Part shown: piece after piece, positions 33,511-39,763 of the stretch
Numbering within the stretch: the stretch's first letter is position 1
Layout: each line of letters begins with the position of its first letter
DNA from: an uncultured Gammaproteobacteria bacterium
GTDB lineage: Bacteria > Patescibacteriota > Patescibacteriia > 2-12-FULL-60-25
Direction: 5' to 3'
Length of the DNA: 64,000 bases
Assembly (NCBI GenBank): GCA_964521235.1
Contig: CAZFRH010000002.1
Location: forward strand, 10,025-74,024
The notes under the pieces: model-generated
Databases searched by the model: none
The model's input: only the letters and a program-made list of their open reading frames with translations
What the model was told of the DNA's origin: nothing
Program-made: the position numbers and the translations under genes

Positions 33511-34947
33511 ATGGCCATGATCGAGCTCGATCCGGTCCTGGAATTTTCTGCTGGAAAGCCGTTTGCTTTGCCCTGGCACCTGGTGCAGCCGCATGCCGAA
33601 CGGGTTGCTCAGCATCTCGGGTGCACCGTCCGGCCGCGTGAGGCCAAAGTGGAGGGGCTCGTCGTGGACGTGGTCGTTTTCCCTGGAAAGCTCAAGGGAC
33701 GGGAGACGAGTGAGCTCCTGTCCGACCTCGTCCCGGGACCGATGCCCCATCCATCCAACCGAGCCTTCTTTCGAGCAGAGCTCGGAAACAGGTTCTTGGT
33801 CTGTATTGCCGGTGAGCCTTGCAGCGAGATCTTTTTCCAGAAGGAGGCCACGGATGACGAGGAACGGAAGCGCCCTTCGCGTCAGCCGCATGTCCAGGCG
33901 GTGCTGAAGCTGGAGTTGGACCGCGTTGCGTGCCTGACGGGTCAGTTCCTCGTTCTCAACATGGCGTCAGAGTTACCGTGCCCGCCTTTGCCTGTTGAGC
34001 CGGGGAGGGTTGATATCCTCCTCGGTTCCATTCCACCTGGCGAGTACACCCATCGGTACGTGAGAAAGGCGTTTGGCCTGTGTCTCGAGCATGAGGGAAA
34101 GGAAGTCTGGGTACGTAATCCCACGAAGGGACGCGGGGTCGTCGTCAAAGACGACCAGGGTGAGGCGGTGGTGCAAATCATCGACCGCACCGTCTACTTC
34201 CTCTACCCCGTCACTTCCTACTACCACCAGGGTGTGACCGAGGCCCTGTTCCGTCACGGGCTCGTCCGGGCCATGAATGCCTTGCGTGACATGGAGCGCG
34301 GGAAGCTCTTGCCTCCCAAGCCAGAGTTCGGGCTTGCCCCTTTCGTCGCCATGGTACAGGAGGACACGGACGGTCGTGCCGCTCATTTTCGCAAGAGGAT
34401 CAAGGAGGTCGAGACGGAGATCGATTCCCTTCGTAGCCAGCTCGAGAGCCAGTACCGGCAGCTTCTCGAGTTCCGGGCGGCGGCCGCCCAAGAACAAAAC
34501 CAGACGCTCCATGCCGACGTCCTCAAACGTGTTCCGTCAGACTATCGCCGGCTGAAGCGCCTGCCGCTCGTCGGACGGGTGTACATGTGTGAGGGCGGGT
34601 TGCAGGTGGAGACGCGCGAGATCGTCGTTGCCCATGAGGGCGTGCGATATCCCACGGGACGCTTTATCGTCCGGTTTTCCCGGACGGGCGTGCTGTCCAT
34701 CTGGGCGATCGAGACCCGCCACCCGGATGGCGTCCCGCATCCGCACCTACGCAAGTACGGCTCTCCCTGTTTTGGGACGGCGTCCGAAGCCATTTCCCGC
34801 GCAGCTGGCGAGATCCGCTACGCTGATGCGATGGAGCTGATCCTACGTTGGCTGACCGAAGGGTATGCGCCCGAGGTCGCCTCGACGAAAATCGAGACCT
34901 GGCCACGGGAAGAAAACCCTGCGGCAGACAAGGAGGCTGCGGAATGA
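33511..34947 (+). CDS. 478-aa protein: unknown N-terminal region, coiled coil, and a C-terminal E2 (UBC)-like domain
   Basis: The C-terminus reads YPTGRFIVRF...HPDGVPHPHLRKYGSPCFG...ILRWL. HPH-x7-C is in the same register as the eukaryotic HPN-x7-C. A heptad-like region spans residues ~290-340. The start may be 33517. Confidence 0.65.
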   Translation: MAMIELDPVLEFSAGKPFALPWHLVQPHAERVAQHLGCTVRPREAKVEGLVVDVVVFPGKLKGRETSELLSDLVPGPMPHPSNRAFFRAELGNRFLVCIAGEPCSEIFFQKEATDDEERKRPSRQPHVQAVLKLELDRVACLTGQFLVLNMASELPCPPLPVEPGRVDILLGSIPPGEYTHRYVRKAFGLCLEHEGKEVWVRNPTKGRGVVVKDDQGEAVVQIIDRTVYFLYPVTSYYHQGVTEALFRHGLVRAMNALRDMERGKLLPPKPEFGLAPFVAMVQEDTDGRAAHFRKRIKEVETEIDSLRSQLESQYRQLLEFRAAAAQEQNQTLHADVLKRVPSDYRRLKRLPLVGRVYMCEGGLQVETREIVVAHEGVRYPTGRFIVRFSRTGVLSIWAIETRHPDGVPHPHLRKYGSPCFGTASEAISRAAGEIRYADAMELILRWLTEGYAPEVASTKIETWPREENPAADKEAAE

Positions 34948-35600
34948 ACGGATTGAACCGCTCACACCAGTCGGAGCTGTTTGACCCGGCGCACGCACGG
35001 CCGGTCACGGTGCTCGGCGTCGGGTCCGTCGGGAGCCACGTCGCCCTCCAGCTCGCCCTGCTCGGTGCAAGCAAGATCACGGTGTGGGACGGCGACGATG
35101 TCCGTTCCCACAACCTCCCCATGTCCATGGTCTTCGGCATCGGGGACCTAGGACGGCTCAAGGTGGAGGCCGTGGCCAAACGGATCAAAGCCCAGACGGA
35201 CATCGAGATCCGCACGGTGCCGCGTATGTATGCGGGTGAGCCGCTCAAGGGGTCGGTGGTCGCGTGCGTGGACACCATGAAGGCACGGCAACTGATTTGG
35301 GAGGTGGTCCGCAACAACCCAACGATCGACATTTTTGTCGATACCCGCATCCATGAGCGCTACATCGTCGTCTATAGTGTCCGACCGTGCCGTCCGGAGG
35401 ACATGATGGAGTACGAGGCGCACCTGTACCCGGACAGCACGACGCCTCAACGCACCTGTGGGGCGCACGGGATCGTGAATGTCACGACCGTCGCGGCCTC
35501 GCTTGCCACCCATGCCTTGACGCGGATGTGGTCCGGTGATATACAAGCCCCACGCCAGTCTCTCCTCCTCGGGGATGATCGGCTGCACGTGTACGAATGA
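34944..35600 (+). CDS. Minimal ThiF/MoeB-type E1-like adenylyltransferase, 218 aa
   Basis: AAGGAGG RBS and an ATGA overlap with the upstream stop. Motifs VLGVGSVGSHVA, WDGDDVRSHNL, GRLKVEAVAKRI, VDTMKARQLI and TCGAHGIVNVTTVAASLATHAL. Confidence 0.75.
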   Translation: MNGLNRSHQSELFDPAHARPVTVLGVGSVGSHVALQLALLGASKITVWDGDDVRSHNLPMSMVFGIGDLGRLKVEAVAKRIKAQTDIEIRTVPRMYAGEPLKGSVVACVDTMKARQLIWEVVRNNPTIDIFVDTRIHERYIVVYSVRPCRPEDMMEYEAHLYPDSTTPQRTCGAHGIVNVTTVAASLATHALTRMWSGDIQAPRQSLLLGDDRLHVYE

Positions 35601-35611
35601 AGGGAGGATTC

Positions 35612-35845
35612 ATGTCGAAGATGATCGAAGTCGTGGTCGAAGTGGTACCGACGAGCGGGAAGCCGACCATCCAGACGGTCGAGGTGCCGAAGGGGGCCAA
35701 AGTTTCGGACGTCCTCACGGCGGCCGGAGTCACGGCCAAGGATCGGAATTTGACCCTGAACGGCGGGGTCGTCGGAGTCGACGCGAAGATCCCCACACCG
35801 GCCAAGGCCAAGCTCTTCGTCCAGGAGCGCCCTGCCGGTTCCTGA
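35612..35845 (+). CDS. ThiS/MoaD-like beta-grasp (ubiquitin-like) protein, 77 aa
   Basis: AGGGAGGA RBS 4 nt before the ATG. VEVPKGAKVSDVLTAAGV..LTLNGGVVGVDAKI..KLFVQERPAGS resembles ThiS but ends AGS instead of GG. Confidence 0.6.
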   Translation: MSKMIEVVVEVVPTSGKPTIQTVEVPKGAKVSDVLTAAGVTAKDRNLTLNGGVVGVDAKIPTPAKAKLFVQERPAGS

Positions 35846-37120: not shown

Positions 37121-39694
37121 TTATTGCGGGAGCGCGAGGCCGCTGTTGGCCATGGCGCGCATGGTGTCCCATTCGGTCGCATTGGCCGGGGTGTGGCCAA
37201 AGATGCGGTGGAAGACGCGGATCGCGGCCCGTTCGTTGGCAAGGCTGCGGACCATTGGGCGGATGCCGTAGGTCATGATGTTGATCGCGGCGTTGTCACG
37301 CGGTTGCGTGCGGTCGGCGTCGCGGCCGTAGATCGTCTTGAAGGTCGCGAGCATCTGGTTCTCGCGTTCCTGGTTCAAGCTCGGGAGCTTGCCGGAGGCG
37401 ATGCGCAGCGCGTCGCGCCATTCACATTCGGTGCGCGGCACGTGGCCGTAGACGGCGCGGTAGGAGTCCACCACACCGGCACGTTCACCGGCGCCCAAGC
37501 GGAGGCCGCCGGAGGTGCCGTAGGCCGTCCAGTTTTTGACCATGTTGCGGAATTCGACAGCGAGCTCGAGCGGAGTGACGCGCGGGACAAGTGTCTGGTC
37601 GAAGAACGTTTCGGTCGGCAGGTTGCGGGTGATGCCGAGTGCGGCCAGGATCTCCTCCAAGGTCCGGATGACAATGCGCGCATCGGGCTCGTCGGCGGAG
37701 CAGGAGCCTTCGGCCGTGTTCACGTCCTCAATACCCAAGACGCGTCCATCAGGGGAACCGCCGCCAAGGTTCAAGAGGGAAGGTTGGCCACCGGACGAAG
37801 CGGGCAGTCCACCGCCACCCCCACCTCCGGAGTTATTATTATTGTTGTTTGAACCACCGCCGGATGAACCGCCTCCTGTTGAAGGGGAGCCTGGGTCATC
37901 GTTGGTGATGATGCACTCCTTGACTTCGCCCGCGGCGATCGTGCCGGAGCAGTTTGAGCCGAGGGATTTGGTGTAGGCGCCAGAAGAGTCTTCGTCCACG
38001 GAGTACGCACCTGGATCAACCGTGATGACGACGCCGTCTTCGTTGCCTGGGAAGGCATCATCAGACGGGTTGGTTGCCGTCACGACCATCAAAAAGTCGT
38101 TGGCATCTGCCTGGCCACGGTTATCGTTCACGACGTGCTTTTTGACGATGAGCGTCCCTTGCGTTTCGCTGCCCTGGATCAGGGTGTTGGTGACGGTGCA
38201 GTAACGTGAGCCGAGCGTGCCGACCGCGACTGCCGTGAGCGTCACTTCCGGTTGTTCCATCACGCCCTCACAGTCTTCGCTGTAGGTCGTGGTGTAGCCT
38301 GGAGCCGCATCCTCGGTCACGTCGTAGCTACCCGCTTCGAGGATGACGTAGGTGCCGTAGCCGTCGTCACCTGGGAAGGTGGTGGTGGACGGGTTGTTGC
38401 CTTCGACATGCAACGTAAACGCGGACGCCGGGGTTTCGCTGCCCACGACGACCTTGCGCACGATGAGCGTACCGACTTCCGGTTCGCTCCCATTTTCCGT
38501 GTTCGTCACCGTGCAGAGGACGTCCTCACCCGGTTCCAACGAGAGCTCGTAGGAACCGCTCTGGGAGTTACCAAAGGCGGATTCCTCGTTGTTGTAGGAA
38601 CAGGAGATTTGGGTGGTGTAGCCCTCGATGGCTGGTTCAGAGATGACGTACGTGTCAGCGTCGAGCTCCATGGTCACGGAGTTTGGCGTGCCATCTTCTT
38701 CCGGAAGGATTTGCTGTTCTCCGTCCAAATACACGGCGTATGACGTGGATTCACCCTGCCACACTTTTTCAACGGTCAGGGTCGCCGGTTCTGGCGCTGG
38801 TTCGTTTTCATCGTTGGTGATCGTGCAGTTCACGACGTCGCCGGAGGAAACCGAGATGCCACCGTTGCTATAGATGTTTCCTTCTTGCTGGTTGCGCGTG
38901 CAGGCAATCGTCGTCGCAAAGTTCGCGATCTCATTTTCCGTCAGCGAGTAGGTGCCGGCTGGGCGGGTGAGCGTCCGGGTGAGCGGCGTTTCGTCGCTGT
39001 CCGGAAGCGCCACACCACCTTCAAACAAGACGGAAAAGCTTGGGGCTTCTGATCCTTCATTCAAGACCCAGACTTTTGTGAGGTTGATGGTGGCGTCGAC
39101 TGGAGGAGGTGGCGGAGGAGGTTCGTCGCCAAACATGACGGTCGTGCTCGCATTGGCGAGGAGTTCCGTGTCATCTTCTGGCCCGTCGGCGCATTTCTGC
39201 GTGACTCCGTTGTGGGGTGTTTTACAGAGATAGAGTTCTGCGTTGACGGTACATGTTCCACTCACGACGCACGCAGCACTTGCATCGTATGTGTGTTGGC
39301 CGATCCAGTCACCGCTATCAAAGCCGTTTAGGCTAAAATCGTACTCTGTTCCATACGGGATTCCATGAAACCACGCATCAACATTTGCCTCAATAAAGCC
39401 TAGAGGGGTATAGCTTGGTGGAATAAAGCTTTCATCAGTCGGTGACCCATCTCCCCAGTTCACGCGGACAAAGATTTGTTGTCCATCGCCGGGACCGCCA
39501 GCGGTTCCATCCAGAGTGACGTAAAAACCACCGCTACCGTTATCGGTGGGGGTGCTGGCTGTAACCGTCATATCATGTCCTTCCACGACCGAGGCGGCTT
39601 TTACGCTGGCGAGTGGGGACAGGCTTCCCAAGACCATGGTGGCCAAGGTTAGGCTCGCGACCCACTGTTTAGGCTGAAAACTCTTAGACTTCAT
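37121..39694 (-). CDS. Large secreted surface protein with four prealbumin/Cna-B-like modules, a Gly/Asn linker and a C-terminal triple-repeat domain
   Basis: Signal peptide MKSKSFQPKQWVASLTLATMVLGSLSPLASVKA. Modules start GTLIV[RK]K/ATLTVEK and end C[TI][IV]TN. The track start is TTG at 39700; the ATG is at 39694. Confidence 0.85.
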   Translation of the reverse strand: MKSKSFQPKQWVASLTLATMVLGSLSPLASVKAASVVEGHDMTVTASTPTDNGSGGFYVTLDGTAGGPGDGQQIFVRVNWGDGSPTDESFIPPSYTPLGFIEANVDAWFHGIPYGTEYDFSLNGFDSGDWIGQHTYDASAACVVSGTCTVNAELYLCKTPHNGVTQKCADGPEDDTELLANASTTVMFGDEPPPPPPPVDATINLTKVWVLNEGSEAPSFSVLFEGGVALPDSDETPLTRTLTRPAGTYSLTENEIANFATTIACTRNQQEGNIYSNGGISVSSGDVVNCTITNDENEPAPEPATLTVEKVWQGESTSYAVYLDGEQQILPEEDGTPNSVTMELDADTYVISEPAIEGYTTQISCSYNNEESAFGNSQSGSYELSLEPGEDVLCTVTNTENGSEPEVGTLIVRKVVVGSETPASAFTLHVEGNNPSTTTFPGDDGYGTYVILEAGSYDVTEDAAPGYTTTYSEDCEGVMEQPEVTLTAVAVGTLGSRYCTVTNTLIQGSETQGTLIVKKHVVNDNRGQADANDFLMVVTATNPSDDAFPGNEDGVVITVDPGAYSVDEDSSGAYTKSLGSNCSGTIAAGEVKECIITNDDPGSPSTGGGSSGGGSNNNNNNSGGGGGGGLPASSGGQPSLLNLGGGSPDGRVLGIEDVNTAEGSCSADEPDARIVIRTLEEILAALGITRNLPTETFFDQTLVPRVTPLELAVEFRNMVKNWTAYGTSGGLRLGAGERAGVVDSYRAVYGHVPRTECEWRDALRIASGKLPSLNQERENQMLATFKTIYGRDADRTQPRDNAAINIMTYGIRPMVRSLANERAAIRVFHRIFGHTPANATEWDTMRAMANSGLALPQ

Positions 39695-39763
39695 ATGCAA
39701 GGGTAGGTAGGGGTGTATTGAATAAAGTATTTATCCACATAGTGGAGAAAGGGCTAGGGTTTG

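Follow-up and report, generated by a model that had tools for sequence, protein, structure and literature searches.

A diverged UBC-fold (E2-like) domain encoded with a ThiF-type E1 and a ubiquitin-like protein in a patescibacterial three-gene cassette

The E2-like gene and its cassette

The subject of this analysis is a stretch of 64,000 nucleotides (the window) from contig CAZFRH010000002.1 of an uncultured bacterium that GTDB places in the Patescibacteriota (assembly GCA_964521235.1, positions 10,025 to 74,024). Three consecutive genes on its forward strand (Table 1) code for a large protein with a C-terminal domain resembling the ubiquitin-conjugating (UBC or E2) fold, an activating enzyme (E1) of the ThiF type and a small ubiquitin-like protein (Ubl) of the beta-grasp fold. 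A preliminary description of this DNA had drawn attention to an HPH-x7-C motif within the last 115 codons of the first gene, read it as the counterpart of the HPN-x7-C of eukaryotic E2s and predicted from it a thioester-forming cysteine. The peptide quoted there is correct, and reading the codons places both the HPH tripeptide and Cys420 where it had put them. Residues are numbered throughout, as in that description, on the 478-residue open reading frame (ORF). The true start of the gene is probably the ATG at 33517, which has AAGGAG 6 nt on its 5' side and would yield a product of 476 residues; on this start all residue numbers become 2 lower. The E1 gene begins within the stop codon of the E2-like gene (as ATGA), has the ribosome-binding site AAGGAGG, and is translationally coupled to it. 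The Ubl likely starts at the ATG at 35612, behind AAGGGAGG, which gives a protein of 77 residues.

The E2-like protein can be divided into three parts, namely an alpha/beta N-terminal region, a helical linker and the UBC-like domain. The first of these is marked in the family alignment by a conserved PPG (175-177), GPTKGRG (203-209) and Q222, and may serve in binding the target, the E1 or a regulator. Foldseek comparison of the full-length model returned no significant fold match in the PDB for this region, and hhalign recovered no similarity between it and E2s (E 0.13 and 0.9). We also considered a second, inactive UBC-like domain in this region of the window protein and rejected it as unsupported by hhalign (E 0.13-0.22). 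The linker matches only coiled-coil proteins among PDB sequences; its last helix doubles as helix 1 of the UBC-like domain, with hhalign pairing residues 338-352 with helix 1 of the E2s. As a separate observation, comparison of the whole-protein model with predicted viral structures by Foldseek gave four matches with E<=1e-3 (A0A6J5NL39, A0A516KZW4, A0A8S5PR93 and A0A516LW79), all of them uncharacterized phage proteins; their template-modelling (TM) scores are about 0.2, and they may reflect the long helices alone.

Table 1. Features of the three-gene cassette, in coordinates of the window
Feature	Position	Strand	Basis or remark
E2-like gene	33511-34947	+	478-aa ORF; identical to the 476-aa database protein P0001
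N-terminal alpha/beta region, residues 1-270	33511-34320	+	modelled confidently by AlphaFold
Helical/coiled-coil linker, residues ~275-350	34333-34560	+	DSSP helices 275-329 and 331-350
UBC (E2)-like domain, residues 328-470	34492-34920	+	AlphaFold, Foldseek, hhalign
HPH tripeptide H410-P411-H412, counterpart of E2 HPN	34738-34746	+	conservation and alignment to UBE2D2 H75-P76-N77
Cys420 (TGT), predicted Ubl-thioester residue	34768-34770	+	conservation; aligned to UBE2D2 catalytic C85
ThiF-type E1, 218 aa	34944-35600	+	Pfam ThiF 3.9e-17, 62.6 bits against a cut-off of 28.1
E1 Cys172 (TGT), crossover-loop position	35457-35459	+	conserved in 30/30, within CG.H
Beta-grasp Ubl	35597-35845	+	82-aa ORF; profile of 28 orthologues
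Ubl C-terminal tail ERPAGS, then stop	35825-35842 (stop to 35845)	+	family consensus ERPQGS

Conservation, profile and fold of the C-terminal domain

A word-indexed protein search recovered only 3-4 relatives of the E2-like protein, so that the family looked tiny, as against more than 1000 members by profile: when the family profile was run exhaustively against 1.84 billion representatives, 1383 matched at E<=1e-3, of which 167 had E<=1e-30. For an analysis of conservation we aligned 153 representatives, comprising the window protein and 152 of 153 fetched proteins (the remaining one, P0001, being the window protein itself), with the homologues sharing 20-40% identity with the window protein. 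The positions of the motif proved to be nearly absolute: H410, H412, C420 and G422 are each present in 153/153 and P411 in 152/153, which bears out the conservation check that the preliminary description had called for. Further positions of the domain, namely Y452, W398, H404, W447 and W464, are each conserved in more than 93% (H404 in 145/153), and N423 is kept in 135/153, with Thr noted as the other residue at this position. The Gly at +5 and Ser at +6, which had been counted as additional coincidences with canonical E2s, fare unequally, as G417 is kept in 108/153 and S418 in only 18/153. The E2-like protein matched no model in Pfam, NCBIfam, PADLOC or PHROG, and 29 full-length members of the family scanned individually likewise had no Pfam match. 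One apparently short member of 195 residues (P0089) is a gene-calling artefact, the ORF at its locus (L058, 4002-5585) being uninterrupted and spanning the whole family profile.

The relationship to E2s was brought out by pairwise profile comparison with hhalign, which, run on domain residues 328-470 against four human E2s and not as a database search, gave probabilities of 78-82% and E-values of 1.1-1.9e-5 over 83-84 columns. As controls, the reversed alignment reached E 0.44 and the best of 30 column shuffles E 0.052. The aligned columns span helix 1, the beta-meander, the Y-x2-G-x-F signature, HP[HN] and the Cys; in UBE2D2 numbering, HPH falls on H75-P76-N77, C420 on C85 and Y380-x2-G383-x-F385 on Y45-x2-G48-x-F50. 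HPH-x7-C has the spacing of the HPN-x7-C of UBE2D2, as the preliminary description had noted for eukaryotic E2s, and the profile alignment, by pairing HPH with HPN and C420 with C85, indicates that the active-site register is right. Its additional equation of a "YP" at the start of the meander with the YPFKPP of UBE2D2 is wrong by one strand: Y380 precedes H410 by 30 residues, the distance from Y60 to H75 in UBE2D2 being 15, and P381 is kept in only 19/153. A search of PDB sequences with a hidden Markov model (HMM) of the domain produced ten sub-threshold matches, 8/10 of which are UBE2L3 in the same register.

AlphaFold modelled the full protein with a predicted local distance difference test score (pLDDT) of 89.8, and the domain on its own with a pLDDT of 94.2 and a predicted TM score (pTM) of 0.89. 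The domain model comprises a helix, a five-stranded antiparallel meander, a 19-residue loop that carries both HPH and the Cys, and two helices (4-23, 95-106 and 110-123 in domain numbering), with Cys420 in the loop that joins the last strand to the following helix. Foldseek comparison with the PDB placed E2 or RWD folds in all of the top 16 ranks (TM 0.36-0.52, probability up to 0.96): the best match is UbcH7 (5udh_C, E 0.029, probability 0.96), and others in this set include Ube2S, UBE2L6, Rad6b, UbcH8, Ube2K and the Knl1 RWD domain. UbcH5, Ubc13 and Ube2W follow at lower ranks, and about two-thirds of the top 50 are E2 or RWD folds. The fold check that the preliminary description had called for is therefore borne out by the model, which has the meander, the HPH/Cys loop and the helices, and whose best PDB matches are E2 enzymes. 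Together, profile and predicted fold support the assignment of the C-terminal domain to the UBC superfamily.

A resemblance arising by chance in a domain unrelated to E2s had to be weighed, as the bare motif is less telling than it had been taken to be. The preliminary description held such exact spacing to be improbable by chance; in the six-frame translation of the window, HP[HN]-x7-C occurs 3 times against 0.34 expected, the two further matches (37816 on the forward and 61955 on the reverse strand) lying in other reading frames and being taken as fortuitous. The bare motif is thus weak evidence, and its significance rests on conservation, profile and fold. No E2 model in the databases is significant, which would also fit a chance resemblance, but the invariance over 153 homologues, the profile E-value of 1.1e-5 against at least 0.05 in the controls, the E2-dominated list of structural matches and the conserved association with E1 and Ubl genes make it scarcely credible. 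The preliminary observation is partly confirmed, in that its core holds and some of its details fail; its E2-like reading is supported, and thioester formation at Cys420 is what we infer from it.

One other enzymatic identity was considered because HxH-x7-C-x2-N has the spacing of the JAMM motif HxH-x7-S-x2-D, namely that of a JAB/JAMM metalloprotease, an enzyme type with an MPN fold, a catalytic Glu further upstream and two His and an Asp as Zn ligands. It was rejected, as no JAB/MPN fold appears among the Foldseek matches, the position of the Asp is held by Asn or Thr, and Pfam yields no JAB match.

The E1 and Ubl partners and the recurrence of the cassette

By its sequence, the gene directly downstream belongs to the ThiF/E1 adenylyltransferase family. 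Its best match among PDB sequences is Escherichia coli ThiF (1zud, 1e-10), and it matches the "E1-E2" models of PADLOC partially, over the E1 part alone. Across 30 orthologues its nucleotide-binding motifs are invariant, the conserved elements being G.G.VGS, D.D.V.SHN, K and CVD.M..R, and Cys172 aligns with the Cys of "erNCrtaGvv" in ThiF.

The third gene codes for a beta-grasp Ubl, since the profile built from its 28 orthologues matches SAMP2 (5lda_B, 7.4e-5), PF1061 of Pyrococcus (1rws, 7.9e-5) and also RnfH, ubiquitin, ThiS and TtuB; the Pfam SAMP2 model is itself matched by 15/28 members. Its most distinctive feature is the C-terminus, surveyed across loci L001, L004 and L007-L054: ERPQGS followed directly by the stop codon is found in 26/28 loci, the exceptions being L041 (QRPQGG) and L047 (ERPHSS). 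R78 occurs in all 28 loci, and conservation reaches at least 90% at each of E77, P79, G81 and S82. L041 is the sole case of the 28 with the Gly-Gly ending of classical Ubls, and no processing peptidase is encoded near the Ubl in the surveyed loci. Many orthologues additionally have a Lys-rich and probably disordered N-terminal tail, e.g., MARKKSGSGKKKSGSK, as seen in L001 (10256-10522), L004 (2959-3222), L008, L029, L052 and L054; the copy in the window is without it.

The arrangement E2-like, E1, Ubl recurs in about 30 genomes: it is shared by the three closest homologues and also by about 29 loci from GTDB species genomes, and the E1 gene adjoins the E2-like gene in nearly all loci. The loci from GTDB species genomes were found with a degenerate DNA pattern for HPH-x7-C[FY]GN[AV] (sensitivity about 60%), which gave 49 matches, about 29 of them true by HMM. 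They come from Uhrbacteria, Lloydbacteria, Paceibacterota, Saccharibacteria and other Patescibacteria, and, outside the candidate phyla radiation (CPR), from nine metagenome-assembled genomes (MAGs) of Gammaproteobacteria, from Binatia and from Dehalococcoidia. No fourth gene, whether for a peptidase, an E3 or an effector, is universal in the 32 loci, and none of them has a JAB peptidase. The same pattern run on viral contigs gave 2 chance matches only and, at its sensitivity of about 60%, no sign of a phage-borne cassette.

A divergent relative from Dehalococcoidia (L019, 4878-7774, reverse strand) is informative as to how this arrangement relates to classical systems. There the order is E2-like, JAMM-motif protein, ThiF and Ubl: the domain of the E2-like protein is present in a second copy that lacks the Cys ("DHPHVVASKPQW...IDAWPL"), a duplication seen only in this protein, the 202-residue second protein carries the JAMM motif HSHGAGGVYLSVQD (HSH-x7-S-x2-D) with Pfam Prok-JAB reaching only E 0.028, and the small protein of 95 residues ends in VVGG. 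A single E2 lineage hence includes both a classical form, with a JAMM-motif protein and a Gly-Gly ending, and a JAB-less form ending in Gly-Ser, which supports a role in conjugation and makes the Gly-Ser tail the point of greatest interest.

The nature of the two partners also brings into play readings other than conjugation. One is a sulfur relay, in which the E1 would thiocarboxylate a carrier of the ThiS/MoaD/TtuB type and Cys420 would carry a persulfide or accept the sulfur for thiolation of tRNA or a cofactor. Such a relay would suit the closest solved relatives of the partners (ThiF for the E1 and SAMP2, ThiS and TtuB for the Ubl), the lack of a deconjugating peptidase and the alignment of the E1 Cys with the crossover-loop Cys of ThiF, which we take to be the residue that forms the acyl-disulfide with ThiS. 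However, the small protein ends in GS and not GG, whereas the known sulfur carriers end in GG; genes for a rhodanese, a cysteine desulfurase or a thiolation enzyme do not recur beside the cassette, and the E1 itself has no rhodanese domain; and the fold of the partner is that of UBC proteins, which are not known to act as sulfurtransferases. On this balance we consider a sulfur relay quite unlikely.

Another reading is a peptide maturation of the MccB/PaaA type, in which the E1 would modify the C-terminal Ser of the small protein by adenylation followed by cyclization or transfer, with the large protein as an accessory and a product that is not a conjugate. Both MccB and PaaA are among the PDB sequence matches of the E1 (1e-6 and 8e-6) and act on C-termini other than Gly, and the strict conservation of the ERPQGS tail would be in keeping with such a modification. 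Those matches, however, span only the nucleotide-binding N-terminal 70 residues, and the E1, at 218 residues, is too short for an MccB-like extra N-terminal domain, which MccB uses to bind its peptide. Moreover, the would-be substrate is a folded beta-grasp domain and its partner an E2-like protein whose Cys is invariant, which leaves this kind of maturation highly improbable.

Predicted pathway, known systems and genomic setting

In light of the above, the motif is probably the catalytic loop of a functional but highly diverged UBC-fold conjugating domain that operates within a three-gene cassette, as judged from the sequences and the structural model. Several observations weigh against this reading. 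At the level of the fold, no Foldseek match in the PDB reaches E<=1e-3 (all are at or above 0.029) and the best TM is only 0.52, and the profile alignment with E2s ends 3 residues past the Cys, with the Trp/Pro and C-terminal helices of E2s unmatched. Scans of 83 domain sequences found no significant Pfam E2 model, UQ_con being matched by 2/83 with a best E of 0.17 and E2-ntca by 1/83 at a non-significant E of 0.035. On the side of the partners, the E1 lacks both CxxC zinc motifs and the "RQ" arginine of ThiF (having "PMS" in place of "QRQ") and has no rhodanese, ubiquitin-fold, JAB or other obvious E2-recruiting module; in addition, no characterized cascade of E1 and E2 is known to work with a Ubl ending in Ser. 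Finally, the concentration of four conserved His and Cys residues in one loop (H404, H410, H412 and C420) could signify a metal site.

The last point is the basis of a further alternative, a non-catalytic UBC/RWD-like scaffold, in which these four residues would bind Zn or another metal and the domain would be a binding partner of the Ubl or the E1 and form no thioester. All four, three of them invariant and one nearly so, fall in a stretch of 17 residues, the HxH-x7-[C]-x2-[N] spacing resembles the JAMM zinc motif HxH-x7-S-x2-D, and an inactive scaffold would be in line with the RWD folds, inactive relatives of E2s, among the structural matches and with the E2 alignment ending right after the Cys. 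Yet the catalytic Cys and His of E2s are matched exactly in register, H404 is replaced in 8/153, no JAB fold occurs among the structural matches, and the adjacent E1 and Ubl require a catalytic Cys. The HPH-x7-C is also shared by UBE2W, and a crystal structure from the Ube2w family has its two His at the positions of the HPN residues (PMC4630614). We accordingly regard a metal-binding or otherwise inactive scaffold as unlikely.

For a conjugating cassette, from the homology, fold, residue conservation and gene linkage observed above, we infer the chemical steps, the target interaction and the biological role in outline. The E1 would adenylate the C-terminus of the Ubl and probably load it onto the invariant Cys172 as a thioester, from where it would pass to Cys420 of the E2-like domain by transthioesterification. 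H412, in the place of the HPN Asn as in Ube2W, would help to stabilize the transition state. The cassette codes for no E3 and its E1 is without a domain for recruiting an E2; target recognition, E1 docking or oligomerization may therefore fall to the N-terminal region and the linker of about 75 residues, with no separate E3 needed. In the last step an amine or some other nucleophile of the target would receive the Ubl. As for the Gly-Ser end, the Ser carboxylate itself might be activated, or the Ser might first be lost; adenylation of the Ser carboxylate and use of the Ser as a leaving group are both chemical possibilities.

The HPH signature in itself has a precedent in an E2 family. The PDB sequence of human UBE2W (2mt6_A) reads VHPHVYSNGHIC, i.e., HPH-x7-C, and HPH has been described as a unique property of the Ube2w family, in which the oxyanion-stabilizing role of the Asn is proposed to pass to the second His (PMC4630614; PMC11649903) and whose members ubiquitinate N-terminal alpha-amines (PMC4630614; PMC11649903). 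As HPH is functional there, its presence here is compatible with catalysis. The likeness to the Ube2W family (UBE2W and the fungal UbcA1) comprises the UBC fold and HPH-x7-C, with UBE2W (8a58_A) at rank 34 of the Foldseek matches. Membership in that family involves the HPH, similarity at the family level and a disordered C-terminus giving the specificity for N-terminal amines; by contrast, the present family shows no detectable sequence similarity to it beyond the general E2 profile and has about 330 extra N-terminal residues and a helix starting directly behind the Cys, with the Trp that E2s conserve left unaligned. Its partners are likewise distinct, being a 218-residue ThiF-like E1 and a SAMP2-like Ubl ending in GS. 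On sequence grounds, the shared HPH more likely reflects convergence or an ancient variant than Ube2W membership. With regard to canonical E2s (UBE2L3/UbcH7, UBE2D2, Ube2S and Rad6), which are the best structural (TM 0.45-0.52) and profile matches and share helix 1, the meander, Y-x2-G-x-F, HP[NH] and the Cys in register, the family differs in falling below all curated thresholds, that of Pfam UQ_con (PF00179) included, in having His for Asn, in its unalignable C-terminal half and in its multi-domain architecture.

Among the bacterial systems, the BilABCD (Bil, for bacterial ISG15-like) antiphage operons are akin to the present cassette in combining a Ubl, a Cys-type E2 and an E1 with no E3, and their E2 has been proposed to pick the targets (PMC11601596). 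They differ in having the JAB peptidase BilC, a large E1 with tandem domains (IAD-AAD-CYS) of which the Cys domain is mobile, and an exposed C-terminal Gly on the Ubl, whereas the cassette has no JAB in 32 loci, a single 218-residue adenylation-domain E1 and a Ubl ending in GS, and so falls outside the definition of Bil. The Bub (6E/DUF6527) systems are again diverged bacterial sets of E1, E2 and Ubl with a non-canonical E2: this E2 is without the C-terminal helix pair and the E1 is homodimeric and ThiF/UBA5-like (PMC11601596). They proceed, however, via Ser (E2) and Tyr (E1) oxyesters and have the fusions BubAB, BubCD or BubBD and the DUF6527 serine protease BubE (PMC11601596), while here both enzymes have an invariant Cys, the genes are separate and neither DUF6527 nor another protease is present, which sets the cassette apart from Bub as well. 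UBC-like domains with conserved His and Cys and ThiF-like E1 domains also occur in Cap2 of the cyclic-oligonucleotide-based antiphage signaling system (CBASS) and in the 6A-6D operons (Iyer et al. 2006; PMC1779556). Those systems have an E2-E1 fusion and/or a JAB, a metallo-beta-lactamase, a polymerase-beta nucleotidyltransferase or an alpha-helical protein; the large protein described here matches no PADLOC model, only the E1 part of the "E1-E2" models being matched, and the cassette does not have the composition that defines any of the operon classes 6a-6e (PMC1779556). Nor does the E2-like family match significantly, and hence belong to, any of the Pfam families Prok-E2_A to E and E2-ntca or any model of PADLOC or NCBIfam. 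Lastly, the archaeal SAMP/UbaA and bacterial ThiS-ThiF/TtuB systems are related through the small protein, which is nearest to SAMP2, ThiS and TtuB, and through the E1, which is nearest to ThiF, minimal and endowed with the crossover-loop Cys; they lack an E2 and use modifiers with a GG ending, unlike the cassette with its ever-present UBC-like protein and its ERPQGS tail.

No description of the E2-like family or of the cassette was found in a literature search that was thin on subscription journals. As far as sequence and model can predict its chemistry and target, the family appears to form a real E2-like conjugation cassette that is distinct from the described E1-E2-Ubl systems. A more far-reaching proposal, which we put forward tentatively and hold to be the less probable outcome, is that it constitutes an undescribed and self-contained Ubl-conjugation pathway of three genes with neither peptidase nor E3, widespread in CPR/Patescibacteria, whose modifier is activated at, or processed from, a strictly conserved C-terminal Gly-Ser by a chemistry that would be new among E1s and E2s, and in which an HPH-type E2 has its own target-recognition module; the L019 branch might then mark the transition from the classical form.

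In recent years the bacterial E1/E2/Ubl operons (CBASS Cap2, Bil and Bub) have come to serve as models for how ubiquitin signaling arose and for antiviral immunity. To these the cassette would add a fourth and simpler type, with three separate genes, Cys-based chemistry like that of the eukaryotic cascades, the rare HPH signature and a Gly-Ser modifier. It is frequent in CPR bacteria, which have tiny genomes with few dispensable genes and in which protein regulation is almost uncharted. Should the Gly-Ser end be used as it is, the rule that a C-terminal Gly is what E1s activate would be broken; trimming of the Ser would imply that a processing enzyme exists.

As to its genomic setting, the window is an ordinary chromosomal region with genes for FtsH, S1, RecQ, ClpB and PGI, in which the cassette is flanked by a Kef-type antiporter gene and a convergent membrane-protein gene. 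Certain loci elsewhere show additional neighbors that are not seen in the window. In one sub-clade (L001, L004, L006, L008 and L054) one or two Exo_endo_phos genes lie directly upstream; a convergent AAA_28 ATPase gene is found downstream on the opposite strand in L001, L008, L042, L052 and L054; and a TPR protein of about 700 residues is encoded downstream in Gammaproteobacteria MAGs (L014, L034, L038 and L045). The window itself codes on its reverse strand (37121-39700) for an 859-residue predicted surface protein with SpaA-type prealbumin-like domains and the Gly/Ser/Asn low-complexity segment GGGSSGGGSNNNNNNSGGGGGGG.

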